From Rhizaria sp. SCN 62-66 (taxonomy: Eukaryota), in assembly GCA_001724265.1 (NCBI GenBank), contig MEDY01000129.1, positions 1-64,000 of the forward strand: 64,000 bases of DNA, read 5' to 3'. Shown piece after piece: positions 3,140 through 48,399 of this stretch. Both the position numbers and the translations under genes were made by a program. Positions within the stretch are counted from its first letter, which is position 1, and every line of letters starts with the position of its first letter. The notes below the pieces were generated by a model. That model worked only from the letters and a program-made list of their open reading frames with translations. It was not told the origin of the DNA and searched no databases.

Positions 3140-6124
3140 TTATAAGTAAATATTGTACCACTTAATTCCGCCGTGGTAAATAGAGGCAGCTCCGTCAACG
3201 ATAGAATGAACCGCTCCTTGAAACATCTCAGCTATGGTTTGCCGCTGGCGGTTAATGTTCATTGCGGGAACGTAGGCGTAGAAGAAATACAGCTGTGTGC
3301 CCATCAATGCCACAACTGGCGCCGCTTGCAGCACAATTTGTAGCACAGAGAACAAAATGTTACGCCTAGTCACCGGCACAGTCGATATTTGCATTGCGAT
3401 CTTACAGAGAGCGTGCTGAATAGCCTGCTCACGCTCAGCATCTGTGTTATTCGGAGTCGTCTCTTGCTCTGTCTCTATGGAAACCATCTGCTTATGTTGA
3501 GTGTGCTCCGTAACCTGCACGGTTTGCTCCGGCGATAACGGCCCCGCAGTGTCTTGCGCTGTCACATTACGCACCGGAGTTCCAAGTTGAACGAGCTCGA
3601 TCTCAGCACTCGCAACACCAGCCCTGTTTTGAGAGGTTCTTCCGCCATTGACTGTCGTGCAACGCGGCTTTGCAACAGCTGATGTGGACCCAATAACAAA
3701 GTTTGCCAGCCTAAAAATACGTGGATTTGGCGTTGCAGTTGGTCCAGTAAGAAGCGCATTTAAGACATTCTCCTTCATGACAGTGTCGCCGAGTAAAAGA
3801 ATCGCTTTTTTGTTGCTTCGGTACTTTTGTTTACTGCGTATCTCTGTGTACCTAACCATCACGGCCTCACTTGCGTTGATCATGTACTCCACAAGACCCG
3901 GGTTGAAGGAGCTCACTCGCAGCATGTCGTTACTGTTATAGACAATCTCTTGCCTGATCGACTGAAGAACAACTTGTGTACACCAAATTAAACGTAAAAT
4001 GGCGTCACGTTCTTCACGGCTGCGTTTCTCGAGTTTGTAAAAAACATTAGTTTTTGTTTCATTCGGGTTGTCATTAGCTTTCTTTTTCTCAACTATCTTT
4101 CGCACTTTCAATGTGAAAAACTCATTTGTTACATTCGGCACACTCATGCGTTCCATTAAATGCGGTGACTCCTGGAGAATACTAAACACAGTCTCCAATT
4201 GAACGGCAACGCGTTCGTAAAGCTTTTGACTGGCTTTCCGCCCCACACTGCGCGCAACAATTACTGCAGCAATAAACACGACAAACAGGAAGTAAAGGTA
4301 GGGCCAGATTGCAATTAAGTACAGAATGAGGATCACGAGGAGATGAACAGCAAGACCCAGCGAGATTATGACAACAAAAAGCTCAAGAATGTACCACTAG
4401 CGTGGCAACCGTGAATGCAGCGGTGCACGCCCAAAGATTGATTTTGTGTAGATTGCCATTAGGGCCGCCGCCGACTGGCGTGTGAGCTCAATCGCCGCAA
4501 ACCCGTACCAGAGAACGACACTGAAGTTATCAACTCCCCAGCACTCATCGGCAATTGCGGCAAAGAACGCCCAAAAAGTGACAACATTGTAACAAATGCG
4601 GACAACCTTAAACACTGCAAGATAGTTTGCAAAAAACTGAAGTTGTGGTGCCAGCTGCTGTGCGTTCTTGTCCAGCTCAGCTTGCGCCGGGGTCGGCTTT
4701 GGTGGGAGCTGCCCATCGGCGGCGGTTGCACGTGATGAACTCACACTACCCTGCTCTTGAGGAACAACAATCTCTTGGTTATTGTTGTTGGCGTCTTCGG
4801 CATTGCCACCAGCATTGATATCACGATCGTCGTCGTAATCCTCAGGTGTCTCTTTACAACAACAGCAACGCAGACAGCCAATTGACTTCAACACCGCAGC
4901 CCTCACTTCAGGAACGGGATACACAAAGATGAAGAATTCAATAACCCAAGAAATGATGAATGATATAAGTGCCATCACAAGTGGTGGAAACTGCGGGTTG
5001 CAAAATGTGACTGTATCCACAAAGGTGCACTCGCCCTGCGGGGATATCAGTGCGTCAGGACGCAGGAAACACTCTTCTTGGTTAATGCTCGCAACTGAAC
5101 TGTTCCATTGCGCGAGGCAACCAGGATCGCTTTCTCCCCAAGGTGTGATATTTTCTTTGCAGACAAACCCGTCTGGACACTCTTCCTGTCCATCATAGCA
5201 CATTGGCACAATCACGGATCCGACTCTTGAGAATCGTCGCACAATGGCGCTGTAAGGCTCGTGAGGAAAGTCAGTATAGAATGGAACTCGGTAGCCCCAA
5301 TCATCACCATAGATGGATCTGGCCTCGTGCACAGGCATTGCGTAACGTGTGTTCCACGGATATGGCTCATTGTAAAAGCAGAAGCGCAACACATCGGTCT
5401 CATTATACTCGCGATAGTAGGTTGCCGCAAACTCTGGACAATCTACAGCAAAGGGTTGCCAAGAGAAGCAGTATGGCACGGACCCGCCAAGGGTTAAGCA
5501 CACCCCAAGTGTGTTGTCGATTGGCATATATCGCGTTTCCTCCGTGTCTCGACACTCGGAGCCAGCGGCGCACACACGAGTGCATATCTTCCCTAAGGTA
5601 CCTGCCACCGACAGTTCGATCAGTCCTGGTTTGCAGGGACCAGAGTATGGATTGCCGTACATGCCTTGCGGCACCGGAATGCGTTGCAGAGGCGGATATA
5701 CAACGCTTGTAGAGTTATCCTTGTCAGTATCGGAGTCGGTGTCGGTGCCGTTGCCAGTATCACTGTCGCTGCTGTTCGTTGTAACGAGGCTTGTGCCAGT
5801 ATAGTAAGCACGACTCTGACGCATTATACGACGGATGTTTTTTATAGCAAGCGTGTTATTGTTGTTTTTTGCTCCCTCAATAAGCGAGGTTATATTGTGT
5901 GTCATGTTCGGACTCGTTGTGCCACCGCTGGTGACAGTGGTGGCAGCTTCTTCTGCATCAGCATGCTCTAACTCCACTGCTAAAGCTTCCGTTGTGCGAT
6001 TGATTGCTCGAGCAGCATCTACGCGGATGTCAGCCAGCACAAGCAGGATAACGCAGAGGAAAGCGATGAATGCTGCGAGGAGCCGCGTTCGCCTTCTGAC
6101 GGCGTCGAGCGCAGCCAAGTACAT
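3140..6124 (-). CDS. ~994-aa multi-pass membrane protein with N-terminal signal/anchor and Cys-rich extracellular region; in-frame TAG at 4397-4399
   Basis: ORFs 4397..6130 and 3140..4336 share a frame and are joined by *WYILELFVVIISLGLAVHLLV, which is part of a hydrophobic helix. Many Cys and N-x-S/T sequons in the N-terminal half. The 3' end (TAA at 3140) is uncertain; a further intron is possible. Confidence 0.65.
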
Positions 6125-7774
6125 GACCAAAGCGAGCTCGTTGTTTCAATGAGACCGCACCTATAAACTGCAAACATGTGACATGATCAAAACTAATGCA
6201 TGAGAACACAACTAATCTTAGCTACGCAGATGTGTCCATTGAACTTAGGTGCTTATTAAGCGCGTAGGAGCGAGTAGGGTACATGTTTGACAGGAGAAAC
6301 AAAGGAGGAGATCGCATTTCATATCGTCCTTCATCACAGCTTTCACAGGCAATGTGACGCAGAGATATCAAAGAATATTTTTCAAAAAATTACGAGAAAC
6401 TGTTAAGTACAGTTTCAGGCTGTTGGCCACCTTTTCTACGCCAGTGTTTTAGTTTGAAGCCATTACGATTGACTTCAACGAGAAACGATATCTTGCTGAC
6501 CCCTCCTTAAGTGCAACTTTCTGAGGAATATAAGGACATATTGTTTCATAGTAAGAGTAATTGAGACGAAAAACAATTCGAAATATTTATTTGTCACTAA
6601 AATGCTGAACTACTCTGTCAAAACGTTGATATTAAGACATCACAGGCGCATTAACTGATTATACGACATTTAGTGTGAGGAAAGTGACTGTGAGCAGTTT
6701 CAGAGTTCTGGAGCTCTACGGAACAAACCGATGGAATTGGTACCACTTTGGTGCAATTCATGATAAAATAATAACTTAATGCAAATCGACATTTTCCACC
6801 TGGATATGGATCCTCTAACTCTAACACACACATCCAAACTATGACAGTGAAAATGCAGACCGGCGACACAAGGGCGCAGTGCGTGAAAGGTAGAAAAATG
6901 TGTTAGTTTGATTTATTATTATATGTATCATCGCAATTCTATTATGCTTGTTGCAAAGGACGGAAGTCAATATATTATATATAAAAACACGCATTCGCAA
7001 ACCCCACGGTATACATACACATCGATCATATGAGTGTGACGGCGTGTCATCATTCAGAGTCCGGATGCATACGAGTAGAGTGAGTTTGCATGAGACGTGG
7101 TGCATCTAAAGTAGGGACAACGCCGCGCTCACGCTCCGCCCACAGCCAGGCTCACAGCCACTATCCATCGCACGTGCATTACGGTTTGTGCTGACAGTGC
7201 AGTGATGCAGTGAGTGAAGTGCAGCGGGGCGGGTGATGCGGTCAGTCGGTCAGAGAGACAAGATAGAGGGCGCAGGAGGGGAAATGCTGCGGGGGCGTGT
7301 CCAAACGGGACTGCCGCCCCCGGCCCGGCCTGGTCCGGCCCTGGACTCATGGGAGAGGACTCGGCCTCGGCCTCAGACTCGAGAGACTCGAGAGGCTCGG
7401 ACTGCAGAGCGCTCGCCGGAGTGACAGACACGCAGGCAGAGCGGAGCAGTGAGTGGAGTCGACAGTAATGACGAGAGAAATGAGGTAACAGAGAACATAC
7501 ACACAAAAAAAACGGAAACCACTTAAGGAGAGGAAAAGAAAGGAAGATTCTGAGTCTTTCCTTCTTTTCAGATCACATTTAAGCACGACAGAGTGCGTCA
7601 CATCGACTGAAGGCTAACTTGATTATATAAACATACTTATATAGAAGGGAGAAAAAAACTAGACAAACAAAAGGCACTCACTCGAGTGCATGGGGAGCAC
7701 GTGTAAGAGAGAGAGAGAGAGCGCAACAGAGTGTATCTTGTTGAGTTGTCGGGTGTAAGAGCTGATTTCGCTGC

Positions 7775-9097: not shown

Positions 9098-12000
9098 ATG
9101 TCGTCCTCGTCTGGAACGCGATTCAGCCCGCGTAGCGAAGACAACTCCGCATCAGACGCAGCAGCCACCGCAACGGCAGCGCTCAAGGCAAGCCTTGCGC
9201 AACGCGTTAACAAGGCCGGCAGCAAGCGGTCCAGCCAGTTGGACGCTCATGCAGCCGGATCCAAGAACCGCGACGATGAGCTTGAGAGCAGCGCCCAGCG
9301 CTTCGTGCGCTCCACCTCCATCGACTCCGCTTCAACCTCTACCTCAACTTCTAAAGCGCTCACAGCCACCCAATCCGCCTCCCGCGCGCTCACGCCGCCG
9401 CACCACACCCTGCGGTCGGACGCGGGCTTAGACGGGGTTGTGGAGACGCTGCTCTCGTTCCGCCGCCACCAGCACACGTACATGGGATACCGCGCGAACC
9501 ACCTCTCGCAGGGCGCGGTCGCACTGCTGGCGCTCGCTGTCCCCTCGCAGCTCGTCACCGCCTGGGCCGCGGGGTACCGCCGCAAGCTGCTCCCGGCCGC
9601 GCCCGAGGCCCCCGTCAGCGTCGGCAGCGGCTCTGGCTCTGGCACTGGCTCTGGCTCTGGCAGTGGCAGCGGTAGCAGTGGCAGTGGCACAGGCAGTGGG
9701 AGCGGCAGTGTTGCTGGAGGAGCGCGCGCTTTAACGCGGGGATCCTGGCGCGGCGCAGCGGGGCGGCGCAACGCATTCCGCCCACTGTTGCGCTTCTTCG
9801 AGGGCGAGATGGGCCGTCGGGAGGCGGCAGCTCGGCTAGCAAGGCTCGAGAACAGTAGCAGTACCAGTAGCGGCACTGCAGCGCACAGTGAGGCTGAGGA
9901 CGATGATGAGGAAGACTTTCGGACCGCCTGGGAAGGACTAGTTGCTGAGGTACGACTTTGAATTTATAAATTCTTTTGATTGATGTAGCATAATTGAAAT
10001 TCAAGTCAAGAGTCTAACGTAGCTCGCTTCTTGTCAATCCTACCCTTCCTTGCGTAGTATCTGCCGTTACTGTCACCGGGCTTTATGGGTGCCGTCACGC
10101 ATCCGCTGATTCAGACTGGACTTGCTGCTGTTGTTTTGCGCCGCGCCGCACTTGCCGCAGCTGCTGCCCGCGCCACTGCTGCCTCCGCAGCTGCCGCTGT
10201 TGCTGCCATATCTACCGACGCTGAAGCAGACGCTCACGCTCCCGCTGCCATCAACGCTAGTGCAGAGTTCAGCGCAGCGGCCAACATAAAGCCCGCCCAA
10301 GAGACTCCTAACAGCGGGCGCAGTCGCTCTGTTGTTAAGAAGAGGCTCACCAGCGGCGACTACCAACACTTGCCGTATCAGAACTCACTCTCGCTCTCAC
10401 AGTCGAACTCACAGTCACACGCTCCCGACCCAGAGCGCGCCGACATCAGCGGTACTAACCGTGAGCAGCGGGCGACGCTGGGTCCGCCGCCGCCGGTGCC
10501 GCCGCGTCCCACCAGCCGGCCTCGTCCGTCCAAGAGCGGCAGCGCGTCTAAGGGATCGGCCGTGGGGTCTAAGGGGGTGACCGTGAGCAAGGGCGGGTAC
10601 AGTCCTCTGTCAGACACGGCGCCCAGCGACAGCGACGATGAAAACCTGTACAGTGATGTCGAAGACCAGAGCAAAAGCAGCAAAGACATTGTTAGGGGTG
10701 GCATGAGTGCAAAGAGCAAGGCCGTGCATGTCGACAGCGTGGACAGCAGTCGTACTCTGTTCAGCCCTGTTGCTGGCGCGACTCAACCATCGACAGCGAA
10801 CAGCGCTGCCATTGCAATTGCGCCAGCTGCTGTGTCTGCCAGCGCCCACGCTGCCGCCGCGGCGGCCGCTGCTGCTGCAGCCGAGGCCGCCGCTGCCGAC
10901 GCCTTTGCACTGCGCGCCGCCGGCCGCGCAATGCTGATCGAAGGGCTGGCGTGGGCTGCGGACGAGTTTATGCCAATTACGGCTGCTAACGGTCACTTTG
11001 CGGCCCACAGTGACTACTCTGCGTTTAACCACGCTGGAGTCGGCAGTGTCGCTCCTGGTTACGAGTCAGCTCTCGGTCAAGATACAGCTGCTCACGGTCA
11101 GTTGTCCGAGCACTGGGACGCGGGGATTGCGCCGTATCCAACCTCGAACACACCACACAGCGCCAACGCTAAGAGTAGCGCAAGTGCTAGCAGTCACAGC
11201 GATGATGATGAGGACGATGACGCACCTTTAGATGCGCCAGAGTCAGTACTCGGCAAATACATGGGTGCACGCAGCGGCGACCTAACGCTTGCAGCAGACG
11301 CTGACGCAAATTTGAGCGCGGCTGCAAGCTGTGCAGAAAAGCCTTCAGTGGCGCGCGCCAGCACTACGAGCAGCAATGCGGTATCTCCTGACGCTGAACT
11401 TGAGATCGCCACCAACGCTGCTCTCTCAAACCACATCAACACTCGCAACAACATTGAAATCGATGCCAAGCAGACTACCGCTGATTCTGCCTCGACTGCG
11501 ATGTCACAGCGGAGTGTCGCCAGTATCTTGCGCTCAAACAGCTTGGCTTGCGCGGCTGGTTTGCCAACTTACACAGGTCCTCTATCGGTGCCTACTGCAT
11601 TGGCGCTGTACGACCGCCTCTCCGCGTTATACGTGGCCACGTTTGCGGAGACAATGCAGTTTTTTACGCAAACTGAGCTCTCACCGGTAATGCCGGCGCC
11701 CACAGTGAGCGCCACAGCTGCTGCAGTGACTGCGCCGACTCCGATTGCGGAGGCGTTGTTCGAGAGGACGCACTTCGACAAGGCCAAACTAAGCAGCTCG
11801 AGTCGCATTTTAAGCGCAAAGGCGAGCAGCGCGGGCGCTGACAGTATTGCGGCCTCAGCAACTGGCCACGCCTCTGTCCCAGTGTCGGGGCTGGCAGCAA
11901 GCGTGAGCGGCGGCGCAGGCGCGCTTGCAATCTCCGCCGACTGTCGCCTTGCGCGGCTGCGGCGGCGCGCGGCGGCCGCGCCGTACAACCAGCACCCGTC

Positions 12001-14111
12001 GCGCATGCTGGGGCAGCTGCACGCGCTGCGCGAGGATGAGGAAACAGGCCGGCACTTGCGCTGGGTGGCGGACCGGTGCGTCAGCGCCGCCGTGGCCGCT
12101 GCGAGGGCTGCGGCGGGCGACGCCGGGGTCAGGGGCGAGGGACGCACCGAGAACAGTCGCAGTCACAAGGCCGCTGACGCGGACGGAAGCTCAAGTGCGA
12201 GTGATGTCGGTGCTAGTGCAAACACTAATGGTAGCAGTTAGACTGCAAACACAGACGGTGCCGCTGCGGATGCTGAGGCTGTGATGATGGCTGGGCTGCT
12301 CAGCGATATTGTTGCACCGTTAAGCGCAGTGCTTGGACTGATGTTCTTTGCCTCTGATGACGACTTCTTTGTGCTCCATTGTACGTGGCGCTACAGCATG
12401 AAAGCGACTTGAGAAATGCAACACAATGGTTTTAGACTATGCTCATTTTTATTTTATATTTGTTTTATCGTTTGAATCTATAGGCTCCAACTCATTCTTC
12501 GCGCTGCGCCAACTGCTGCCGTGCTTGGCTCCGTCACAGCTACAACCCGTTCTAACTGACGGCCTGGCCACAATCCTCACGATATGGCTTGCGCAAGTAC
12601 GTACATCTTCACAGAATCAGTTCGTCTTCAAAATATTTTCCGGACCAAGGCTTGTTGTTCACTCATGTCTCACTTGTTTATCGTTCACGCTTACACTATC
12701 TAAGGGTCTTCCCGGTGCTGACTCGGCTGAGATCCGCCACCTCTTCGACAACGGGCTCCCCAGCACCACGCCTTCGCCATCGCCGGTGCGCTCCCCCGCG
12801 CCCGGCTACTCAACCATTGCGCCTGGTCGGCTCACCACTGCTGTTCAGCGGCTCGAGAAGAACGTCAGCGCACCGCAAAACGGGGCAACGTTTGGCGTGT
12901 TTGCCCTCCGTGGCAGCGCCGTCGACCCTGTTCCTCAATCGACCAAAAAAAGCTCGATCTCATACTCAGGCAACAACGATTCTCAGTTTGCGAGCAACAA
13001 CATCAACTCTGCCTCCGGCACTGGCGCCGTCTCTGCCACGTGCCCAATGCTCCCACCGTGGGCCGTGCTGGGCTCCGCCGCCGTGGGGGCGGCGCTGCGC
13101 GACGTGCACCCCACCAAGTCCATCTGGATGCTGTCTTGCGACGCGCCGGTCCACGGGCGCTCGCACGTCGTGCTGCGCTGTGCTTTACCGACAGTCGCCG
13201 CTGTACCGCAGCACAGCGGCGCCAGCAGCACCGGCCGCGACGCGCGCGGCAGCAGTGACGACACAAGCGAGGCAACAGCGGAGACGCCAGACACTGCTGC
13301 TACAGAGGAGCGTCGAGAGCCCGCGACGCCGGCTGCGGTGGAGGCCGCTGCCGGCGCCTCAAGCGCCAAAGAGGTGTGCGCGGCGCTGGCCGAAGAAGCC
13401 ACCGCCTCCGCGTCCGCGCCCGCGTCGATCCCGCCCCACGAGCGCGCCACCGTGACCGCGGCCTCGATCCAGACGGGCGGCGGCGTCTGGCAGCGGCGCT
13501 GGGACGCGCTGTTCGAAGCTGAGTACGCGCACGCACAGCAGCGCAAGCGCAGCGACTATGCGGCCGCGGTCGCCGACGGGGGCGCTGCGCTGTGCGCGCG
13601 GCTGGGGCTCTCTGCGGGCGTGGGGAGCGGGCTCGGGCTCGCGGGCACGCCCTTAGCCGGTGTAACTGGCGGCCAGAGTCTAAGTGCTGCGCAGAGAGCG
13701 AGGAGCGCAAGCGTGCCCGTACACCCTCGTTATAGTGAGAGCGCGGGGGTGAATCTAAGTGCACCCTTAGACCGTGTGGATGAGGTTGTGACTCTGGAGG
13801 CCGCTGCAAGGGGCACGGTGCTCACAGGGTTCCTGCCCCCGTCACTCATGGGGAACGCGTGGCGTCGCACCGACACCACAGCCAACACCACAAACATTCA
13901 CGTTCAAAGCACTGACCGGCAGACTGCAAGCTGGACTGACGCCACGCCTGCTCACAGCACTGGCGTGGGCGCAAACGCCGGCGCGAGCGCGAGTGCGAGT
14001 GGCGCAATCAGCAATACGGCCAGCGCAGTGTCGTTGGAGCGTGAGTGCGGCGAGCGCGCACTGTGGCTAGAGGGGCTTGCACGTGCGACGGCGCTCAAGG
14101 CGGTGATCTGA
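9098..14111 (+). CDS. Questin oxidase-like (DUF4243) protein, ~1,564 aa, inflated by low-complexity insertions; exons 9098-9949, 10058-12380, 12484-12596, 12705-14111; in-frame TAG at 12239-12241
   Basis: Family-like motifs in the expected order: NHLSQGAVALLAL, YLPLLSPGFMGAVTHPLIQTG, EGLAWAA, DFFVLHCSNSFFALRQLLP, WLAQGLP. All splice junctions keep frame. Confidence 0.75.
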
Positions 14112-27653: not shown

Positions 27654-30600
27654 TCACCGCGCGAGCTTGAGCATAATCTTCCTGTGCGCAAAGCAGAGAA
27701 AATCAACGTACGACAGCGACGCGGGCGACTTGTTCTTCCCCGCGGCCTCATCCACCACTCGGACGGGCGCGCGATCAAAGATAAGCCGCGTGTGCATCGC
27801 GATCTCCTCCTGCGTGCGCATGCCGCGGAGAATGCCCACGCCCGCGGGGCCCAACGCCGCGGGTGGGGCCGTGACGCCCGCGCCCTCGCTCGCAAACACC
27901 ACGCGCACGGCCTGCGCGGCGGGCATCCCGCGGCGCGCAGACGCAATGATGTCGTGCAGCGTCGCGTGCACTTGCGCGATGAACTCGCCGTCGACTGCAG
28001 TGCCCGCGGCCGCGGCATCAAGCTCACCGCGCGCGCGGACAGAGGCCAGCAGCGGCTTCACCCCGGCGCCGGCCACGGTTGCGCCGGGCAGCGTCGGCGT
28101 CACCCCGGCCGCGTGGACCTTAAAGAGCGCGGTGATGACGTGCGCCGGCACTGCCGAGCCGACGTAGACGTAGAGCGTGCGTGCGTCGTCGAGCACGAAG
28201 ATGCTCGTGGCGCTCAGCGATGACAGCTGCGGCGTCTCGGTCGGCCACCCGCCGCGCACGGGCTCCTCACCGGGCGGGGTGTCGGCCGAGTCCCCCTCGG
28301 GAGACAGCGCAGGCCCTCGGTACGCACACTTGATCACGTCGTACAGCCGCGGGACGACGGCCGTGGTAGCCAGCGCGGCGGGCAGGCACAGCGCCTGCAC
28401 GGCCAGCGTCGTCCGGTCGTCGACGCGCACGCCGGTGCCTTCGCGCTGCAGCAGCTCGGACTTAATCAGACCCAGCGTGCAAACAGGCAGCAGCTTCACA
28501 GTGTCGGGCAGGATGAGCTGCGTCGACACGGACCCGACGCAAACATACTTGCGGTACGCGTAGAGGCAGTCAAGCAGTGAGTTGACCGCGGCGTCCTGCG
28601 ACGCCAGTAGCACGGCGTTGGACGCGCCCGACCCCGCGCCCGCGGCGGCGGCCTTGTGCGCAGTGCGGTAGTAGAGCGGCTCGGCGGCCTGCTTCAACGA
28701 GAGCGCGACGATCGTGTCCAGGTCCACGCGCGTGAACACGTCGCCCACGGTCGCCACGATGGGTAGCGACAGCGTGTGCACGCGGATGCGCCGATGCCCA
28801 GACGCCGTCGTGTAAAGCAGCGCAGCCTGTACGCAGCACTCGTTGGGGGACCCCGCGGCGCCGCCCTTGCCGCTCTGCACGACGGCCTGCGACGGCGGCA
28901 TCAGCGGCGCGTGGCCCGGGTTGCCCCCCGCCCAGGCACCGGTACCAGTGAGCGACAACGTGTCGCGGTACTCCACGCGGAACCCCACGGCCTTGTCGGC
29001 GTCGACCGTCGCAAGCAGGTTGTCGTAGTACGAGTAGAAGTTGCCGTAATACTGCGCCACGGCCAGCCCGCGCGAGACGCGGATGATGAGCGTCGCGTTG
29101 GCGCCCGCCGCGCGCGTGACGAGGTTGCGCCTCACGTCCTTGGCCAGCGTTTCGCCGTCGAGCAGTGCGAACGATCCTGGGAGCACCAGGCCGGCGCCCG
29201 AGCTCGCCGCCGCGGCGCCGGCGCCGCTGCGGGTAGGCTGCGCCACGGTCAGCGAAGAGGCGTAGTAGCGGTAGAGCTGACCACCGGTGACCGTGCTGAG
29301 CGCGGACACCGTGGCCACGTCGGCGTAGGACGAGCCCGCAGAGGCGAGGCGGCAGGAGAACAGGTCGAACCCGAGACTGAGTCCAACGGCCTTGACGCCG
29401 AGCTCCTCGTAGAACCCTTCGCCGGCGGGAGCGTACAGCGCTGCGAGCGCGGCGGCGGCCTGCGAGGACCCATGCACGTTGCTGTACAGCGCCGCGTCCT
29501 CGCGCATCGGCAGCGCGCCCGCGCCGTGATTCGGCAGCGACGCCGAGAACAGCAGCACGCGCCCGCCGCCGAGGCGGTAGTCGCTGGAGCCGACGTGACC
29601 GCCCGTGTCGCGCTTGCGGTCGCCCGCGCCGGGCCCCGCGAGCTCCTCGAACAGCAGCACGGCCGTCTTGGCCGCAGCACCCACGGCCGCCGCGGGGCCG
29701 GCGCGGCCTGTGGCAACGTCGCGCGCGTGCTGCGCCGGCAGCGCGGCCAGCACGGCGTCCAACCGGGCCGCGGAGGCTGGATTGCAGAGCGAGGAGACGC
29801 ACATGGCGGCCGGGACGGGCAGGAACGGGTCGCCCGCGGAGGTCATCACGACGGTCTCGGCCTCGGGCCAGTCGCCGCGCGTGTTGAGGTTGGCGTTACT
29901 GGCGTTGCCAGCGCTGTTGCTGTTGTTTGTGGACGAGGACTGAGCCGCGGGAGCCGGGGCAAGCATCTGCAGCTGCACCGTGGCGCCGTACGTGATCACG
30001 GCCACGAACGGGCCCCGCGGTAGCGCAGAGGCAGCGGGGCTGTAGCGGGCGTGCTCGGCGAACTCGGCCTGCGCGCGCGCCGCCATCTGCGCTGTCGACT
30101 CGCGCAGCGCGGCGACGGCCGAGGCGAAGAAGCCTGACCGCACTGCGCCCACCGAGGCGTCGAGCGCGTAGATGTAGCACATGTTGAGCGGCTCGCGGGC
30201 GCGGTTCGCAGCCTGCGCGGCCGCGGACGGCGCGCTGGCGCCACTAACACCTCCGGAGTCTGAAGAGGCGGCGGCGGCGGCGGCGGCGGCGGAGGAAGAG
30301 ATGCCCCAGAGAGAGGCGGGCGCAGGGAACTCAACGGAGCCGTGGCATAGCTCCGGACGCTGGTTGCGGTCGCGCCGCAGGCCGTCGGCGTCGAGGTTGC
30401 ACCGGTACCACTCAGGCACCTCCTGTTAAAGCGCAAACCAGATCAAATGCAGCAAGAAAGCGAAAGCGACACAAAGGGATAATAACACACCAGTGAGCCA
30501 AAAGTAATATGATTCACAAGTATGATAAATTAAGCTATTATTCGAGTATATAGACGTAAAATATGGATAAATATATCTCAATACGTCTGCAATATGTCGA

Positions 30601-32822
30601 CATCCTTGCGAGGTATATCTAGGTATATGTACGCACCTGCGTGAGCTCGCAGAGGTTGCAGACCATCTTGGCGCCCAGCTCCTGGAAGCGGAAGAACGGG
30701 TTGACATACGCGCGGCACCCGCGGCAGCGCACGGGCCCCTCTGGCGCGGTGACGGACGCTAGCTCGACGGCCGTGTCGCCGGGCAGAGTGGCCGCGAGCG
30801 GCTGGAGGACGCCGCCGACGGCGATCTTGGTCTTGGCCATGACGGCGGCCTCGGCCGGGATGGCGTGCGCAGTGAGGCGCAGGAAGCGCGGCGACGCGTT
30901 GCCTTGATCAATGACGGTGAAGCGGGACGACGCCGGCGGTAGCTGCTCCCCGCCGCGCGTGCGGACTAGTGCGCGCGTCTCGGCCTCGAACACCGGGAGA
31001 GTCGACGGGTCGATGCGCGGGCCGAAGCTGCCGCCGGAGCCGGAGCCAGAGGAATTGGGGGGGCGCGAAGGCTGCGGGTGCGGCACTGCGCCCGCGGTCT
31101 GAGACTGAGGCTGCTGCTGCTGTTGCTGCTGCTGTTGCTGCTGGGGCTGCTGCTGGGGCTGGGGCGGAGGAGCCTGGCCCGGCATCAGGGGCATCAGCAT
31201 CCCGTTCGCGGCCGGCGCCGGCGCGCCCATAGTAGGAGGCGGGGGAAACGCCGCGCCGCCGCTGAGCGTCGAGGACAGACTGGGCGCGGCCGAGGGTCCG
31301 CCCACCGCAGTGTACATGTACCCGTTGCCCACCGCGTTAGTCGGGCCCTGGGCAATCCCGCCGAGGCCGCCGCTAGTCGCAGGTGCAGTCGCGGAGGGAA
31401 AGCCGCCGCCGCCGCCGCCGCCGACAGCGTTGGCGGCAGAGGGAGACGGCGTGACACCGGAGGGCGCTGCCGAGAGCGAGGGCAGCGTGATGCTCGTCGC
31501 CGCCAGCAGTGCGCCGGTCGCAGCCACGCTGGGGGCCCCGGGCAGCGAGTTCAGGCCGTTGTTGCCGTTGCCGTTGGGGAAGACCGGGGCGGGGAACGCG
31601 GCGGCGTGCGTGCCGGGGACCTGCTGTCCCGGCGGCGCCAGAGCGTTGGCGGCGTGAGGGGCGGGCGGGACGGCGGAGGGGAACGGAGACAGCGCGGGCG
31701 ACGGCACGTCCTGGGCGGGGAAGCGCGGCAGCAGGCCCGAGGCGCCGGGCACCGCACCGCCGAAGCCGAGCCCGAGCCCGGCGCCGTGGCCGCCTGCGAC
31801 AGGCAGGGGCCCGCCGACAGTGGCCGCCGTCGCGAGGGGGGACGCGGCGCCGCTGGCCAGGCCCGACGCAGGGCCGCCGCCCATAGTAGAGAGCGGGGGG
31901 ATACCGCCGACCGCGCCGGGGGCTGCGGGGGCGGGGGGCGCGGTGAGCGAGAGGGGCGCGGGGGGAAAGAACGGCGACGACGGAGGCGGGGCAGCGGCAC
32001 CAGCACCAACAGGGGGGAACGGAGGCTTAAACGCAGCGCCGGCGCCAGCGGCGGCGCCAGCGGGGGCAGCAAAGGGGTTTTGCAGAGGCGCGGGGGCCGT
32101 GAAGGGCGCCGGAGCCGTGAAGGGCGCCGGGGCGGTAAAAGGCGCGGGCGCGGTAAACGGCGCGGGGGCGCTGAACGGGACAGGGGCACTGAAGGGCGCG
32201 GGCGCGGGCGCCGAGAACGGGGCCGGGGGCGTCGCAGCGGTGAAGGGGGCGGCGGGGGCAGTGAACGGCGCGGGTGTGGTGAATGGAGCCGGTGCACCGA
32301 CGGCTGCGGGGGCAAACGGGTTGGCGACGGGCGCAACGGCAGCAGGGCGCGGCGCAGCAGCAGTTCCAGCAGCAGCGCCCGCGCCGGCGCCGGCGCCAGC
32401 GGGAGCGGGAGCGGCGGAGAAGGCAGGGGAAGGGGCGCCAGCGGGGAACGCGGCGCCGGCGGAGAAGGCGGCGGGCGCGAAGGGGTTCGGGACAGCACCG
32501 CCAGCGGGGGCCGCGGGGGAGCCAGCAGCAGGAGCAGGAGCAGGAGCAGGAGCAGCAGCAGCAGGGAAGCCAGGCATAGGCGCGCCGGGGAAAGCGCCGA
32601 AGGGGTTAGCAGGGGGCGCTGCGCCGGCACCGCCAGGGGCCGGGGGGAAGGCGGGGAAACCGGAGAATCTGTCAAGAGCAGGGACAGGGCAAGCAAGAAG
32701 TTACAACATGAAGTGTGAGCGTGGTAGTGCAAGAAAGCCAAGGTTCGAACAGAGACAGGAGGAAGCAACTGTCAGAGAGCAAGTGAGGGAGGATGCGTGA
32801 GTGAAACGTACCCGGGCTGCAT
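27654..32822 (-). CDS. SEC24: COPII coat protein Sec24 (C/D-like); exons 32822-32812, 32668-30637, 30422-27654
   Basis: DQGNASPRFLRLT, zinc finger PVRCRGCRAYVNPF...CNLC, RPELCHGSVEF, VQAALLYT..GHRRIRVHTLSLP, QLILPDTVKLLP, SYVDFLCFAHRKI; spliced length 4812 nt, in frame. Confidence 0.95.
32085..32300 (-). repeat. Tandem APFTAP/APFSAP hexapeptide repeats in the Sec24 N-terminus
   Basis: Translation ...APFSAPAPAPFSAPVPFSAPAPFTAPAPFTAPAPFTAPAPFTAP...; 18-nt period. Confidence 0.9.
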
Positions 32823-37693: not shown

Positions 37694-40600
37694 TTCTGCC
37701 ACAGCAGCAGGGCGACACCGCTGGCGGCAGCGCGGCTCTGGCCCCGCTAGACACACTGCTCAATCTCAACCGTGAACGTGACCGTGAGCACGACCGCGAG
37801 CGAGAGTTCGAGCAGGAGCGCCAGAGGGCGGCTGAAATCGCGCGCTTTCACGACATTATGCGCGTGTTGCGGCGCGAGGCTGCACAGCTGCGCGGCGAGC
37901 GCAGGCAGCTAGACGGCGGACAGAACGGGGAACCCTTAGATCTGAGGCTTGCTGCTGTAGCAGGAGGGTACCTAGACCCTGCCGAGCACTTACAGTTCGA
38001 CAGGCGGCCTCACATGACGCAACATCACCAGCAACAACAACAACAAGGACAGCAAGAGCAGCCGCAAATGTATCCGCATATGCAGTTACCGCAGCATGAT
38101 GCACAGTTGCAGCACGGCCAGTTAGTGGGCGACCACTTACACCGAGTGCATTTGCAGCACGCTCACGCGCTTGATGAGCAAGAACACGCAGCGCAGCTTC
38201 TGCGTGAACGGAATGTTCAACTTGTACACAACAGCAACAACAAGAACGAGATCGCTAACAGCACGAGTAATGCAGCAGCCAGTGCAAACGTACCGGCTGA
38301 TGTAACGAACGCTGCACACGTACTAGCAAAAGCCTCAGCTCTTCCGCCGGCTATCTCCGCTTACTACGGCGTGCGTGACCCCGTGTACAGCACGATGAAC
38401 AGCGGCATTCGCGAGACAATGCGCGACGCGGTGCGCGACGTCGAGGAGGACTCGGCGGGCCGCAGCGACGCTGCGGTCGCTGTGTGGAGCGCGCGCGAGG
38501 GCACGCCGTGGACCCACCACGAGAGTACGTTTGCGACATAGACGTAATATTGAAACAAGTTTGAAACTCATACGTTAATCAAACACTAGACTTACACTTT
38601 GTCTTTATTTCCTTGTTTTTTTGGCAGCCGCCGCACTGTTGCACCTGGCGGTCTGCCATGAGTTCTCAGCAAACGCAATGTGTGCTTTTTTGCGCCGCAC
38701 GCGTGCGGACATCACCCAGGTACGCCGTCCGACGAGCAGTAAAATCTATCTCAAGCCATCGATCTCACAAACCTAAAGTCTTAAAACACTTAGCTAACGC
38801 CTTTTCCTGTCACTCTCCCTTCGTCATCACTCTAGCACCTGACACACTTGCTGTGTGCGCTCGCCATCAAGGTCCCCGTCGCTGTCCCCATTCCCCGCAC
38901 CGTCACGCCCACCCTGTCGCCCGCAGTCGCGACAGCGCCCGCGCAAGCTGCCGCCGCTCCCGGACAGACTGTGGCGCGTCCGCTGCGGCCTGCGCCGTCG
39001 CCCGCGTGCGCGTTGTCTCCGCCGCAGCTGATCGCTCCGCGCCCGGTCAACGCGACCAGTGCACGGACAGCGAGTTTTGCTGCTGCAGGCGCAAGTAGCG
39101 GAGACTCGCCTGCACTCGCGGCAGCCGCTGCCGGTGCGACACTGCTGCCGCAGCTGCCGCCGCTGCCGCCGCACTTGCAAACGCTGCAGTCGCTGTCACC
39201 GATGCGGTTGTCACCGTACGCTCACTCGCCGCCGTTGTTGTCAGCATCAGCAGAGTAGTCCCAAGCGCTGCCGCTGACGCTAGCAGCGCCGTCGTCGCAG
39301 CTCCTGGGCCTGTCACCACCACTGTCACGACTATCTGCGGCGCCGCGGCCGCCGCCGTTGCCGCCCGCCGCCGCTGCTGCCGCACGCTTCCAGCTCGAGT
39401 CGCGGCTTAACTTCTCGCTCGCCGCGCGCTGGCCGCACTTGCGCCCCGTGTTGACGCAAATGCTTTGCCACTTGCTGCCGTTGCCGGCGCCGCTGTGCGC
39501 TGAAATCGCAGCGCTCGCAGCGCCGTCGCTGGCGCCGGGAGATGTGTTGAACGTGCTTGATGAACGCGGCCGGGACACGTGGTATAAAGCGGTTGTGCTC
39601 GATGTTAAGCCGCCGTCGCCGCCGCTGGGGAGCGCACCGGTTGCAGGGCCAGCATTGTCTTTGCTGCCACGCGGCGTTGCAGTGGGAGCCGCAAACATCA
39701 GCGGCGGCAACAGTAGTCGCGACGCAGACAGTGGCCAAGACATGAACAGTGACAGCGTTTATAGCGACTCAACGGCAACAGAGAGCGACAATGAGCATGA
39801 CAGTACCCACATGCATGTTTACAGTGACAGTCACGTGAATGAGGAGCAAGAAGACGGCAGTTGTCAGATGAGTGACATCAATGACACGCGACGCACACGT
39901 GGCACACATAAGTTGAACAACACCAAACATAGTCGTTTCGTCCCCGCGACAGCTGTACTAAGTCCGCGAGCACGGCCCAACCGCGCAACAACATGTGCTG
40001 CGACTAAAAACATTCGGAACCATAGTGCACCGGACCTAGCTGAGGAAAGCGTCTCGCGTGCATTTGATAATCTCACTCAAGGCCCCAACGTTGCGCTGCC
40101 GAACAACCACACTCGCCAGTTTGCCAACTTGCGCGTGCTTACCGCCGCAATATTCCCAGGCATGGCCGCTGAGACGGTGAGGCTTGCGGCCTCGCTGTCG
40201 GCCGCAGTTGCAGAGGCCGCCGGGCCGCATGTCCCGCCAACACAGGCACACCCTCAAGGACTAGAGCATGGGGTAGCACTTCACGACAAGCATCAAGCAG
40301 CCGCTACCACAGCGCCAGCAGCAACGCCAGCGACGACGGCTGCAGCGCCTGACGCTAACGACGGCTGCGTGGACGTGGTGCGCATTGCACTACGCATTGC
40401 AGCCCGCCACTCCCTTCCGCCGACGCCCGCAGTGCTTTTGGCGCTCGTTCCCGCTGCGCTGACTCTGATGGCGCACCGCGCCGCGCGGCTGGCGGCGTTT
40501 GGCGGCGCGGCGCGCATGCCGGTTACCGACGGCCCCGCAAGCGTGGCGGACGGGCCTTGCGCCTGCGGCGGCGTGTGCGCGGCCGCGGTGGGCGACGTAA

Positions 40601-43600
40601 GCGCGGCGGCGCGCGCTGAGGCCGAAAGCGGCCCAGTGTGTCCGTGGACGCAACGGTTTGCTCTGGTGCACGAGGCGATGACAACTGCGCCCAGTGCGTG
40701 GGGCTGCGTATTCGACACGGTGCCTTTGCGCGGGCAACAGCAGCAACAACCGCAGCAGCAGCAACAACAGCAGGTGCAGCGACTTGTGCCACTTGCTCTT
40801 GAAGACAACGTCGCACCACCGCGCGCGCTCGCACACGCACAAGCACAGGCGCAACATCAGCACGCGGAGGGCCAGGCACAAGCTCACGGCCACAACTTAG
40901 AGCCCCGTCAGGCGCGTGGCCCCGAGCCCGACTTGGCGGGCGCGCGCCGTCAACTCTACCCGGGCGCGGCAGTCGCCCCGCTCCGCACTGGCGGCGGAGG
41001 CGGTGCGGTAAGCGGAGGCATTGCGCTCGTGCAACAACGCCTGCAAGACGCGGCCGCGGCTGAGAGCACGTCCGTCATGGTCGCGCGGGTCATCATCGAA
41101 GAAGAGGCAGCGCGCGCGGCGGACCGCGCAAGGCGCAGGCTGGAGCGCAGGGCGGAGCGCGTGCGGCGCGGTCGGCCGTGGGGCCGAACAGTCGCGATGG
41201 GCGCGTACGGCATGTATGGGAACGTCTTCAATGGTAAGTTTACAACATGAACAACATATCAACTCACAAATGCCCGGTTCAAATGCAAAGTCTATCCCTC
41301 GTCTTAACACTTGATCACCCACACCCCACACAACATTTGTTTTTTTATTTATAGAGGTACTGAGCGTTCGTCAGCAGCGCTCCTCTTTACGGGAAGGGCC
41401 GTACGACGCTTATACGACGCCTGCAGCTGCGCTCGACGAGGCCGCCCGCGTCACTGCGCTGGGCCATGCAGCGCAAAGGCTTGCCCTATGGGAGCGAGTC
41501 GAAACGCGTTGCGAGCAGGAAGCTGCTGCAGCAGCGCTTGCAGTCATGGCAAGCCACAACAGCGCTCGTGATGACACTTGTGGTCACAGCGAACACCTGT
41601 ACTGCTGTCCCGCAGCAAGCGATTGTAAGCAGTGTGATGACTGCGGCTACGACCACCTGGCGCCCGTGTCGGCCGCTTTGCGCGCGTTGCTCTGGCGCCT
41701 GTTGCCGCCACCCCCACGCTACGCTGCAGACACAACCCTAGAAGCAAACGCGCACGCGAGCGACGCGATCATGCAGAGTAATAACAGTGCGGTTCAAGGT
41801 GGCGTCACATCCGCAGCCGCCTGTTTTGCCGCCGCATCTGCCGCCGCGTCATCCCCGAGCTTGGCAGTAGCTGCGGCGCTTGCGTGCGCTGCGCTGCCTC
41901 AGGCACGTCGCAGCGGCGCGAGCGCAAACGCTGCCGCGGACGAGGGCCCTGCGTCATGGCTCCGGCGACGTGCGTGGGCAGTGGTCGAGTACACCGACTT
42001 AGAGCGCCGCATCGACGCCGCGCTTGACCGCAAGCAAGCGCGGCTGCAGACGCTGTGGACAAAGCTCGGGCCTGCGCTACAAAGCACACTTGAGAGCAGT
42101 AATCTTTGCAGGAGCGCGGCCGCGGCGTCGGGCAGCTGTACAGAGGAAGGCGACACTAGAGAGAGCGAAAGCGTAACACTGTTTGCGCAGCTAAGCATTT
42201 CAAGCCCGACCACGCATCAACAGCAGTGCGGTGCAATGCCGACTATTGCCGCGTTTCCAGTTGCGGCTGCGCTATCACCGGCGTCATCACCGCAGGGCTC
42301 CCCTGGCACTGCGCTGTTTGCCGGCTCTGCCAGCTCGGCTGGGTCTGCAGGCTCGGCAAGCCGCGCAAAGCGGAAACGCATGGAGACCCCTGACGCCAAA
42401 CATACCAATTCTGCACTGACTAACGGCAATGATGCGCAGACTGGTAGTCGTGGTGCCAACAATCGCGTTGCCGTTGATGATCGCAAGTATTCCGACCAAG
42501 ATAGCAACAGCGACAACAGCACACCGCCAAGCGCGCATCACACTCGTGGCAATGTGAAACTTTGCCAGCAGCAGCCCAAGAAAGAGAGGTCTTACGCAAA
42601 AGACGTTATCAGTGGTCCCAGGGCTCATGCAGCAGGGGCGGACGAGAGCAGCTCGCTTGCCGTTGGTGCTGCAGCAACGGCAACCACAGGCGCCGACACA
42701 GTTTCTCCGTTTCGCGGACCGTTTGTCAAGCGCAGCACAGCGTACACGCGCCCCGGTGTAGCGTCTGCTTGCGCTAGCGCTGCCAGCGTTGAAGCAGACA
42801 CTATGCACAGCCAAACAGGCGCGTGCGCAGGCGCGTGCGCAACAACGCCTCCGCTAGTGCCCACACTGAGCGGCGTCTCTGTGGCAAATGCCGGCGATAT
42901 GGGGCCAGTGTCTGCACCACAGTTGCCGTCACAAGCGCAGACCCAAGCGCCTGCACTTGAGCTTAATGCTGGCAATGGCAGCCATTCTGTTCCAGCTGCA
43001 AACCCCAGTCGTCGTGAGCAGGCGTTAGCGTCGCGCTTGCGCGAGCTTGCAGCTGCGTTCGCCAACTTAGAGCATGCCAACACGCAGCAACAACAGTTAA
43101 CTCGTGATACAGCCTGCTCGCAGCAACTGCAGCAGCAGCAACAGCGCCAGCGCGCGCTCCCGCTCTTCTGGCCCGACTCAACTCTCGCTCGCCGCTACGG
43201 CCCGCCGCTGCCCATGCCAGCAACAGCAGCGGCCAGCGCGCCCGCAACATCTTCCGCTCATTACGCAACCGGCGCGCCCGTTCCCGGCGTGTGCGCGCCG
43301 CAAGTGCGCGTGCACTACCTCGGCTGGGGGCCCAAGTGGGACGAGTGGCTGCCCACGCCCGCGCCGCGCGTGGCGGGGCCCGGGGCGCGGACGGCCGCGG
43401 GCGCGCGCACGGGGCCCGACGTAAGCGCAAGGCCAGCGCACGTGGCGGCGGCGGAGAGCGTGGCGCGCGCGGAGGCAGTGTTTGCAACGCAGGTGCGCGC
43501 GCACGTGCTCAGCGCAGCGCTGGCGACAGAACATCAAGAGCGACGTCAGTATCTTGCGACCAATGATGATGGTGTCTTGGGCCGGAGCAGTGCAGACAAT

Positions 43601-45438: not shown

Positions 45439-48399
45439 TCAGTACTTCGTGCCAACGCGCACCTTGTTCTTGATCACGTGCTCCTGCGTCTTCGCGAGCC
45501 CCGTCAGCGTCTTGCCGCCGCTCAGCCCCAGCATCTCGGTCGCGGTCTGCGCCCCGTACGTCGCTGCAGCCACTGCGGCCGGGGCTGGCGCCGGGGCCTT
45601 GCTGAGCTTCGACAGTGGCTTCTGCGGCAGCTGCGAGTTCAGCGCGTTTTCAATCGCCACCGCCTGCAACGCGGCTGCGCGTGCAGCGTGTGTGCGTGAC
45701 GGCCTCGCTTCTGTCGGCAGCGGTGCGGCCTTGCTGGCAAACACAGAGTGCATCCCAAGTTCGTCAAACTCGCTGACGTTAAGTGAGTGCGAGTGTGCGT
45801 CCAGGTCAAGCGCAGCCGCGCGCGCCGCGGCAGCCGCAGCCTCGCGCGCGCCCGCGCTATTTGCTCCCGCGTTCGCGTTCGAGTATGCGTTGTCTGGCGC
45901 AAAGATCGCGGCCAAAATGGCGTCCGCGGAGAGGGACTCGACCGTGGTTGCGGCAGGGCGCTCGTACACCGGCCGCTGCCGCTTGGCCAGGACACTGGTG
46001 CCTGTGCGCGCCGCGGCGGCAGCAGCGGCGACATCACTGGCCGACACCGGCACCGATGCTGAGCGTGGCGCTGTCGCGTGTGCTGCTGCGGTTGCAACAG
46101 GAGTCGCAGACACGGGCATAGAGGGCAGCACAGGCGCAGGCGCGTTGGGATCATGCACCAGCTGCACGGCGTCCATCACGACAGCGTCAGGCACACCAGT
46201 CGCGTCCGTATTAGCGCTAGTATCCGTGGCTGCGGGCTGTTGCTGCTGTTTCTGCAGCTTTTTCTTATCCTCACGCACACGCTTGCCTCCCAGCGCTTCG
46301 AGCCCCGAATGGATGAGCTGCGCAATGAGATCGCGGTCCCGCCGCGCCGCCTCGGCGTGCGGCATCACCGCCGCGCCGAACCGGTGCGCGAGCCACACGT
46401 ACAGATCCAGGTTCGAGAACGTCTCCTCCAGCCTGTCGATCGCGTCGGGATCGGTCGGAACGCCGGGACGCGTCACGTAGGTCGCCGACGGGATGGGCAC
46501 CGCGCCGCCCGCGGAGAGGCGGCGCGCGTACCACTCGACCAACACGCGCTGCGACGGGTATTTCTCCACCGCGGCGGGCGCGTAGCACAGCGTGACGCGC
46601 TGGTACGGGTCCAGCTGGATATTGTCAGTGATCGTGGCCAGCTCCAGCAGCGAGTCAAGCGAGCCCAACTCGTAGGCGTCGTCGACGGAGTGGCGCGCGC
46701 GGAGATTGTGCAGGTATGACGAGAGCGGCAGCGACGGGAAGCGCCGGCAGAACGCCAACAGATGACCTGTGCTGGGGGACAGCTGCGCACGCTGCATCGG
46801 CGGCGGCGTTGATGCGAAGACTTCCTTGAGGAACTGCAGATCGGTGTCGTGGTAGAGCGCGGTGACGGTGCCGCCACCCTCAGCCGCGGTGTGGCGCGAG
46901 CCAAAGCGGCCCGCGCGGCCGCCGATCTGCAGCGCCTCGGAGACCGTGAGCGTGCGGAACTGATCGCCGTCGAACTTGATCGTCGTCGAGAAAACAACAC
47001 GGCCGATGTTTAAGTTAAGCCCCATGCCGATCGCATCGGTCGCGACGAGGATGTCGACGCCGGAGTCGGGCTAGTTGAACAGCTCGGCCTGCAGCTTACG
47101 CACTGCGGGCGGCAGCGAGCCGTATACGATAGCGCAGCGCATGCCTGTCGCGCTCTCAATCTTGTCACGCATCGCATAGACCATGTCACGGCGGAAGACG
47201 ATCACGGCGTCGCCGGGACGCAGTTCCGAAAAATCACGCACGGGTGTGTCGGCCACGGCCAGCGGGGAGAGGCGTTCGTACCGGTTGACGTAGACGTCCT
47301 CGCCGGTGAGTTTAGCCGCGTTGAGGACCCACTCGAGCGTCGATGCGTCGCCGCAGATGTGGACTTCCTTCGCGGCAACGCCGAGGAAAGCGTTGGTCCA
47401 AGCAAACCCACGGTCTGCATCGGCCATCATCTGCCCTTCGTCGATCACGGCGACGTCGACAGCACGGTCAAACATGGCCATTTCGACCGTGGACGACACG
47501 TGTGTGGCGCCAGGCACGTCGATCACTTCCTGTCCAGTCAGCAGCGAGCACGCGACGCCGCGCGCCGTGAGACGATCGTGGATTTCCCACGCTAGCAGCC
47601 GCAGCGGGCCGCAGTACAGCCCCGACTCGGCGGCGGCGAGGCGCTCCAGCGCGCGGTGCGTTTTGCCGGAGTTGGTGGGCCCGGCGTGGACGACGATGCG
47701 CCGCTTCAACAGGCGCGCAAGCGGGAACCAGAGGTCGGGCCGCCGCAGGTTGAGGAATGTGCGCCAGTCGAGCGCCCCCACGCGCGCGCAGCGCTCGGGC
47801 AGCGCGGGGAGCGCGGCGGAGGCTTCCTCGCCGAGTCCGGCCCAGTACACGTGGTGCTCTTGGGCGGCGGACCCGGGGAACGCGGCGGCGTGCTCCGCCA
47901 TCACATCCCGCGCGAGCGCCTGCAGCGGCAGCACGTCGGGCAGCTCGGAGTCGGCGACGGCGGCCTCGGAGGCGGCCCACTCGGCCGGGGACAGCGCCTC
48001 CGCGGCCTTAGCCGCGTCAGCGACGAGCTGTGCGTCAAGCCTTGCGCGCTGCGAGAGGCGGTCACTGTTCGCGCGCTGGTGGCGCTCGTTCATCGCGGCC
48101 ACGCGCCGGGCCATTTCAGGCGTCTCTAGGGGCGCGCGCGGGAACGGGGTGTCGCGCTCGGCGTTCGCGCCGGCGAAGTTGAGGCCGGTCTGCGCGCCGT
48201 TCTCTTTCGAGGAGAAAGCTGCGGAGGCTACTGTAGTCAAGCGCGCAGTGAGGGGAGCGGAGGACGAGCATGTCGGCGCCAGCACAACGCGCGGAGCGGG
48301 CACGTTGGAAGGCATTGGACCTAACGTACTGAGAAGCTGCGGCGGCGCGGAGAGACGCGCGAGTGCCGATACGAGGCGCGGGGGCCCGCGGCTAAGCAT
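45439..48399 (-). CDS. SUV3: Mitochondrial RNA helicase SUV3; in-frame TAG at 47071-47073
   Basis: WFPLAR, HAGPTNSGKT, YCGPLRLLAWEI, STVEM, VIDEGQM, RGFAWT, YGSLPP..RKLQAELFN*PDSGVDILVATDAIGMGLNLNI, LQIGGRAGRFG, LDLYVWLAHRF. Confidence 0.95.

Follow-up and report, generated by a model that had tools for sequence, protein, structure and literature searches.

What does a cell make of a TAG codon that lies in the middle of a helicase gene, with open reading frame and homology on either side? The question is raised by a gene for the mitochondrial RNA helicase SUV3 in the window, i.e., the whole stretch of DNA analyzed here (64,000 nucleotides of contig C129, from a eukaryotic assembly, G000, of 34.9 Mb in 714 contigs). 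A preliminary description had regarded this TAG as the strongest single site for a variant genetic code.

UAA and UAG almost always carry the same meaning, and UAG-only exceptions are few. The UAG-only nuclear codes listed in PMC11687900 use Leu, Gln or Ser; the same paper describes Glu for UAG in one ciliate, in which UAA is Lys, and for both UAR codons in peritrichs. A literature search, mostly outside subscription papers and supplements, found no report of UAG as Glu with UAA and UGA as stops.

About 1.05 Mb of sequence was examined (988 kb of loci plus the window; ~3% of the genome). We consider it highly probable that UAG is a sense codon in this organism, and a nuclear code in which UAG specifies Glu and UAA and UGA are stops is the likely explanation.

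An in-frame TAG in the SUV3 helicase gene

The features of the gene are as follows:

45439..48399, minus strand: SUV3 mitochondrial RNA helicase gene, one 986-codon open frame when the TAG is read, with ATG at 48399 and TGA at 45441-45439
47278..47739, minus strand: DEXQc_Suv3 domain, residues 221-374, upstream of the TAG (216 bits)
46900..47220, minus strand: Helicase_C domain (Pfam, E 5e-11), residues 394-500, spanning the TAG
47071..47073, minus strand: in-frame TAG, codon 443, inside Helicase_C; most likely Glu
47071..47103, minus strand: possible intron (rival reading), a 33-nt GT..AG stretch whose last three letters are the TAG; the residues it encodes are identical to those of the closest homologue
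SUV3 residues 655-701, minus strand: SUV3_C domain (Pfam)

The minus-strand codons first quoted for this site match the sequence exactly, with TAG at 47073-47071, and the codon does fall in the conserved helicase core, as had been stated, since Helicase_C spans residue 443. The part 3' of it, put earlier at some 540 intact codons, consists of 543 open codons over which homology continues: P0001, the nearest homologue, is 86% identical up to the TAG and 76-77% identical beyond it. ATDAIGMG and QIGGRAGR, which we take to be helicase motifs V and VI, both lie 3' of the TAG and would be lost by termination there. Compared with the SUV3/SUPV3L1 family (PF22527, PF00271, PF12513), domain order and motifs are intact, whereas a TAG in place of the usual Asp and an extended C-terminal tail of low complexity set this gene apart. 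The TAG column was described as usually polar, and an alignment of 120 homologues bears this out: the column is dominated by acidic residues (D 90, T 11, E 7, S 4, A 4, G 3, Q 1), with one residue in each homologue and no insertion.

The site was compared in contigs of 4 of 18 listed sequencing runs; runs with a small share of the organism were left out as evidence. The TAG is kept where contigs of runs X3, X4 and X7 bridge the site. These runs belong to studies P2, P3 and P5, all distinct from the likely source, and no replacement codon was seen there. Runs X4 and X7 differ from the window at synonymous sites 1, 9 and 85 codons from the TAG. All four strain SNPs in codons 221-701 are synonymous and are found on both sides of the TAG; five of six in the low-complexity tail change the residue. 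A JGI contig (L124), which may share the source of the window, has the same TAG. No second SUV3 was found by a Pfam family search of the assembly, in which the top match scored 216 bits and the other three of four scored 30-36 bits. Run X7 is probably DNA; contigs of a poly(A) RNA run (X6, share 0.19) cover other parts of SUV3, none of them the TAG. The SUV3 TAG is true sequence, neither a base error nor the mark of a dying gene.

The tail of the gene (45439-46290, minus strand) comprises ~280 low-complexity residues that vary between strains. Near 48203, run X4 carries an in-frame insertion of 6 nt.

In-frame TAG codons across the genome

Reading frames were scored by a codon model for which 73 long frames served as the training set. 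Over the first 660 kb, stops with coding sequence upstream were still followed by coding sequence in 16 of 37 cases for TAG, 1 of 79 for TAA and 0 of 75 for TGA. A stricter two-sided filter applied to all loci retained 23 TAG among 212,560 coding codons, or about 1 in 9,000; GAG and GAA together numbered 9,296, which puts TAG at ~0.25% of Glu codons. Unfiltered, the same windows contain 85 TAG, an upper bound. This filter had no non-coding background model and also passed 6 TAA and 3 TGA, which look intronic or untranslated. The earlier suggestion of a genome-wide variant with TAG as a sense codon thus agrees with these data, as in-frame TAG recurs, TAA and TGA do not, and a CUA tRNA is present (see below).

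Three further sites lie in the window:

4397..4399, minus strand: in-frame TAG flanked on either side by coding-like sequence, in a 1001-codon frame (3140-6145) that has no match in Pfam
12239..12241, plus strand: in-frame TAG close to the end of a frame of 804 codons (9998-12412); a weaker case, in low-complexity sequence
39256..39258, plus strand: possible in-frame TAG in frame 38785-41250; weak, coding score ~0 downstream

Sites that could be aligned with homologues are in genes for SUV3, TTLL9, UBE2J1, an ASCC3-like protein, two kinases and a ubiquitin-like domain. The TAG was inside a Pfam match in 2 of 31 windows. Genome-wide, 142 kinase matches included 9 with TAG only, 1 with TAA only, none with TGA only and 4 mixed; three of the nine were inspected, and two proved to be in frame and one an intron acceptor. 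Searches for DEAD (43 matches) and ABC (20 matches) domains gave no true TAG site, the sole TAG being an intron acceptor. The TAGs in domain matches that were rejected as intron acceptors include those at L134 and L178. An all-against-all paralogue search returned mostly antisense frames. The base following sense TAG (+4) was C in 9 cases, G in 6, A in 5 and T in 3, with no clear difference from CAG or GAG.

Codes with such rare use of a reassigned codon escape annotation. Public gene calls break at TAG, and are split at the SUV3, UBE2J1, L155 and L148 sites on 4 to 7 contigs each.

At L148:397-1230 (minus strand), a tyrosine-kinase-like domain is fused to a C-terminal repeated domain without Pfam match, and the in-frame TAG is in the latter. 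The window also contains a Sec24-like gene (27654-32700, minus strand) whose N-terminus is long and rich in Pro and Ala; its one intron, of ~200 nt, follows the zinc finger.

TAG at gene ends

TAG is nearly absent from gene ends, although a few candidate TAG ends remain. Among 144 clean gene-end-like stops, 74 were TAA, 65 TGA and 5 TAG, and three of these five resemble introns or sense sites. KDEL followed by a stop occurred 21 times genome-wide, with TGA in 11 and TAA in 10 cases and never with TAG. The broader pattern K/H/N/Q-D-E-L followed by TRR had 38 matches (TGA 17, TAA 14, TGG 6, TAG 1, the last being HDEL-TAG); its reversed control had 14.

At three apparent gene ends, TAG is followed within two codons by TAA or TGA (window 38539-38547, plus strand; L069:4970, plus strand; L103:1657, minus strand). 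Such arrangements might mark genes whose original stop was lost and whose frame now runs on to a backup stop. The tandem signature showed no enrichment after TAG gene ends (0 of 5).

A tRNA with a CUA anticodon

A single tRNA with the anticodon CUA came out of a pattern search; it lies on the minus strand at G000:C84:76008-76080. It forms a full cloverleaf, aligns with the full RF00005 model at 58 bits and is followed by a T run; it carries neither an encoded CCA nor a long variable arm. Folding of this RNA alone gave a z of -1.5, which is not significant. Contig C84 has eukaryotic genes and window-like composition, and carries both this tRNA and the TTLL9 gene with its TAG. No similar Glu-type CUA tRNA was found in prokaryotic or viral contigs with one exact pattern. 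ARAGORN labels the tRNA Pyl because it relies on the anticodon alone.

Compared with 44 other tRNA sequences of the genome, the CUA tRNA best matches Glu(CTC), with 47 of 73 positions identical and a score of 34 versus 21.5 for the next; identity is 36-37/73 to Gln(CTG) and 39/73 to Asp. Its first five acceptor pairs are common to both of the organism's own Glu tRNAs (CTC and TTC), and its T-stem is as in Glu(CTC). Position 73 is G, like that of the own Asp tRNA and not the A73 of Glu(CTC), and the D and anticodon arms differ from those of the own Glu tRNAs. A pattern search for UUA tRNAs, which intron-bearing or unassembled genes would escape, returned tRNA-Lys and one poor match only. An engineered human tRNA-Glu(CUA) is described as inserting about 95% Glu by mass spectrometry (PMC12204705).

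The gene for the release factor eRF1 is located on contig C63. Its ASNIKS (TASNIKS) motif is intact, and one TAG lies inside the domain-1 match (G000:C63:103370-103699, minus strand); this could belong to an intron acceptor or be truly in frame. The canonical patterns E55-x-G-T and G-x-S-M-I-S-L were not matched at this locus, which an intron or divergence could explain equally, so an intron may interrupt the region.

Which residue is inserted at UAG

Only three TAG sites are well conserved, and two of them favor Asp. At the TTLL9 site, 115 of 120 homologues have Glu, one has Gln and none has Asp. The UBE2J1 column is D 86, E 16, T 8, S 6, N 2, G 1 and A 1, with no Q (n=120). The ASCC3-like and two kinase sites are in variable columns; the ASCC3-like and L160 kinase sites were rejected as informative, being too variable.

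We scored all 20 residues at seven sites on fixed trees (LG+C20+G4; 15-35 homologues per site after thinning), an idea taken from PMC5304391. Over the seven sites, the adverse one included, the posterior was 0.87 for Glu, 0.13 for Asp and 0.004 for Gln. Leu was 25.5 and Trp 44 log units below Glu, the best residue, and the exclusion of Leu and Trp proposed from the SUV3 site is therefore upheld. Profile log-odds over six sites were 8.1 for E, 6.1 for D and -7.0 for Q. Taken one by one, the sites differ: Asp is preferred at SUV3 and UBE2J1, Glu at TTLL9 and Gln at the ubiquitin-like copy L040, the last because the genome's own ubiquitin has CAG (Gln) where L040 has TAG. SUV3 is not the most telling site, as it alone favors Asp; the decisive evidence comes instead from TTLL9 and the CUA tRNA. 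The aligned columns and the tRNA together suggest that the residue at UAG is acidic and most likely Glu.

The neighborhood of TAG is mixed. Several TAGs are in or beside CAG runs (polyQ), and Gln makes up 8.4% of the residues neighboring TAG, compared with 14.1% for CAG and 3.7% for GAG; the corresponding Asp shares are 7.8%, 3.8% and 6.8%. This may reflect two mutational sources of a rare Glu codon.

In L040 (728-1597), a ubiquitin-like domain, which contains the TAG, is followed in one frame by a Peptidase_S74 (endosialidase chaperone) domain.

Proposed mechanism

If UAG is read as Glu, a duplicated tRNA-Glu(CUC) could have become the CUA tRNA by one anticodon base change, and its product would be charged by glutamyl-tRNA synthetase. 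It would pair with UAG and not with UAA, as argued in PMC5304391, and would outcompete eRF1 at UAG, where eRF1 action may be weakened. SUV3 would then be made full length, with Glu443 replacing the usual Asp. The rare UAG codons may be supplied by synonymous GAG to TAG changes and by tolerated CAG to TAG changes in unconstrained stretches.

Given the very low use of UAG, this genome is a candidate for an early stage of reassignment, in which codon-capture and ambiguous-intermediate models become testable in one organism. A more specific version would place the code near its birth in a non-ciliate protist, with one new tRNA-Glu(CUA), Glu inserted at conserved sites and partly Gln in CAG runs, and an in-frame UAG in the eRF1 gene itself forming a feedback loop on termination; we regard it as rather unlikely.

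Comparison with known codes

UAG-only reassignments have been described in the rhizarian exLh (Leu) and in Iotanema spirale (Gln) (PMC5304391), and in phyllopharyngean ciliates (Leu, Gln), Protocruzia tuzeti (Gln) and Scotinosphaera (Ser) (PMC11687900). As in these codes, UAG is here uncoupled from UAA, UAA and UGA end genes, and decoding is assigned, by prediction or observation, to a CUA anticodon. The differences are the residue, Glu, and the frequency: exLh has 384 UAG in 71 genes, compared with ~1 in 9,000 codons here. In addition, the tRNA gene has been identified here, as it had not been for exLh or Iotanema. Evidence of the type used for UAG-only codes by Panek 2017 is present, namely in-frame UAG in many unrelated genes, UAA and UGA that are not sense codons, and a cognate CUA tRNA found without a UUA tRNA.

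Oligohymenophorea sp. PL0344 (UAG = Glu, UAA = Lys, UGA = stop; PMC10553269) also has CUA tRNAs that are nearest to tRNA-Glu. There, UAA is a sense codon and UUA tRNAs and ten CUA tRNAs occur, whereas here UAA is a main stop, one CUA tRNA is present and the UUA search found no such tRNA. In Blastocrithidia, UAR is Glu, UGA is Trp and UAA also serves as a stop, and the tRNA-Glu(CUA) is derived from a duplicated tRNA-Glu (PMC12153298). Blastocrithidia and the peritrichs resemble the present case in decoding UAG as Glu, but both UAA and UAG are sense codons in them, whereas in-frame UAA and UGA are essentially absent here and the genome is GC-rich; UAG makes up 1.4-1.7% of codons in Blastocrithidia against about 1 in 9,000 here.

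None of these codes was accepted as it stands. An exLh-type code was rejected on the 25.5 log units separating Leu from Glu and on a CUA tRNA without long variable arm, and an Iotanema-type code on a posterior of 0.004 for Gln and a tRNA unlike the own Gln tRNAs, with one site (L040) adverse to this rejection. A PL0344-type code was rejected since UAA is not a sense codon here (coding downstream in 1 of 79 cases), ends genes and had no UUA tRNA in our search; for peritrich- and Blastocrithidia-type codes, UAA is likewise not read as Glu, being a gene-end stop with no UUA tRNA found. A code with UAG as Glu and both UAA and UGA as stops would constitute a new translation table, for which the decoding tRNA gene is identified.

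Alternative explanations

UAG might be ambiguous, partly a stop, with the single tRNA-Glu(CUA) acting as a natural suppressor and rare nonsense changes being tolerated rather than fully recoded. This is unlikely: it agrees with a single tRNA gene, 23 clear sites in 212,560 codons that mostly fall in poorly conserved regions (a Pfam match contained TAG in 2 of 31 windows), a few possible TAG gene ends and an eRF1 whose TASNIKS looks intact, but gene ends have lost TAG almost entirely (it occurs in none of the 21 KDEL-stops and in 5 of the 144 clean ends), and the TAG of a single-copy helicase is fixed across strains. It is improbable that UAG is Gln, either as in Iotanema or in CAG-rich contexts only, by a near-cognate tRNA-Gln, with Glu elsewhere. 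The CAG in the ubiquitin paralogue of the TAG-bearing copy, the polyQ contexts and the insertion of Gln at stops in Gln-rich yeast contexts described in PMC13192750 speak for this; however, Gln occurs in 1/120, 1/120 and 0/120 homologues at the three conserved sites, its posterior is 0.004, and the CUA tRNA does not resemble the organism's Gln tRNAs. Moreover, C>T transitions in polyQ would yield TAG whatever its meaning.

That UAG is Asp, with the CUA tRNA charged by aspartyl-tRNA synthetase, we hold to be decidedly improbable. The Asp-dominated SUV3 and UBE2J1 columns, the posterior of 0.13 and the G73 common to the CUA tRNA and the own Asp tRNA must be set against the absence of Asp from all 120 homologues at TTLL9, the Glu-like body of the tRNA (39/73 to Asp) and the two anticodon changes needed to turn GUC into CUA. 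AspRS reads anticodon bases that this change would remove. The chance is very small that the SUV3 TAG is removed or altered in RNA, by splicing of a 33-nt intron (47103-47071) or by editing. The stretch has a GTGCGT donor like that of the Sec24 intron in the window and a CTAG acceptor, its removal would keep the frame, and TAGs within domain matches at L134 and L178 were intron acceptors; yet it encodes 10 residues that match P0001 exactly and belong to a conserved region of the helicase, A-to-I editing would produce Trp, which scores worst of all residues, and TTLL9, UBE2J1 and the CUA tRNA would be left unexplained by either process. An ordinary nonsense mutation, a pseudogene or a G>T sequencing artefact is hardly credible when three other studies have the same TAG next to strain SNPs, no second SUV3 was found by the Pfam search, conservation persists past the TAG, and the effect is specific to TAG, with gene calls split on 4 to 7 contigs per site.

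The host organism

Four runs, from bioreactor and wastewater metagenomes, contain half or more of the window's words; the organism recurs in such data. In a quick SUV3 tree of 43 sequences picked from 121, the SUV3 studied here and P0001-P0006 form a long-branched clade of seven. Loci of relatives from metagenomes amounted to one identical contig, six homologues of 41-51% identity and one weak match.

The 18S gene is very divergent and interrupted, and its contig may belong to another organism. Extreme 18S sequences in Sainouroidea and an insertion in the polyubiquitin of Rhizaria are described in PMC6133090, which makes Rhizaria (Cercozoa, Sainouroidea) a lead for the host lineage and no more; no polyubiquitin junction was found in the genome. 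Should the host prove to be a sainouroid rhizarian, UAG-only codes would have arisen independently twice in that group, one with Leu and one with Glu.

The 18S rRNA gene (L001:1500-5945, on G000:C706) is AT-rich and lengthened to ~4.4 kb by several insertions that by eye look like group I introns, some perhaps nested. At L105:1223-4034, three single ubiquitin genes are arranged in tandem; they are divergent, carry an additional Ser behind the initial Met and end in a tail of three residues. A protein almost identical to them is filed under the nematode Panagrolaimus superbus (P0516), and perhaps comes from a contaminating relative.
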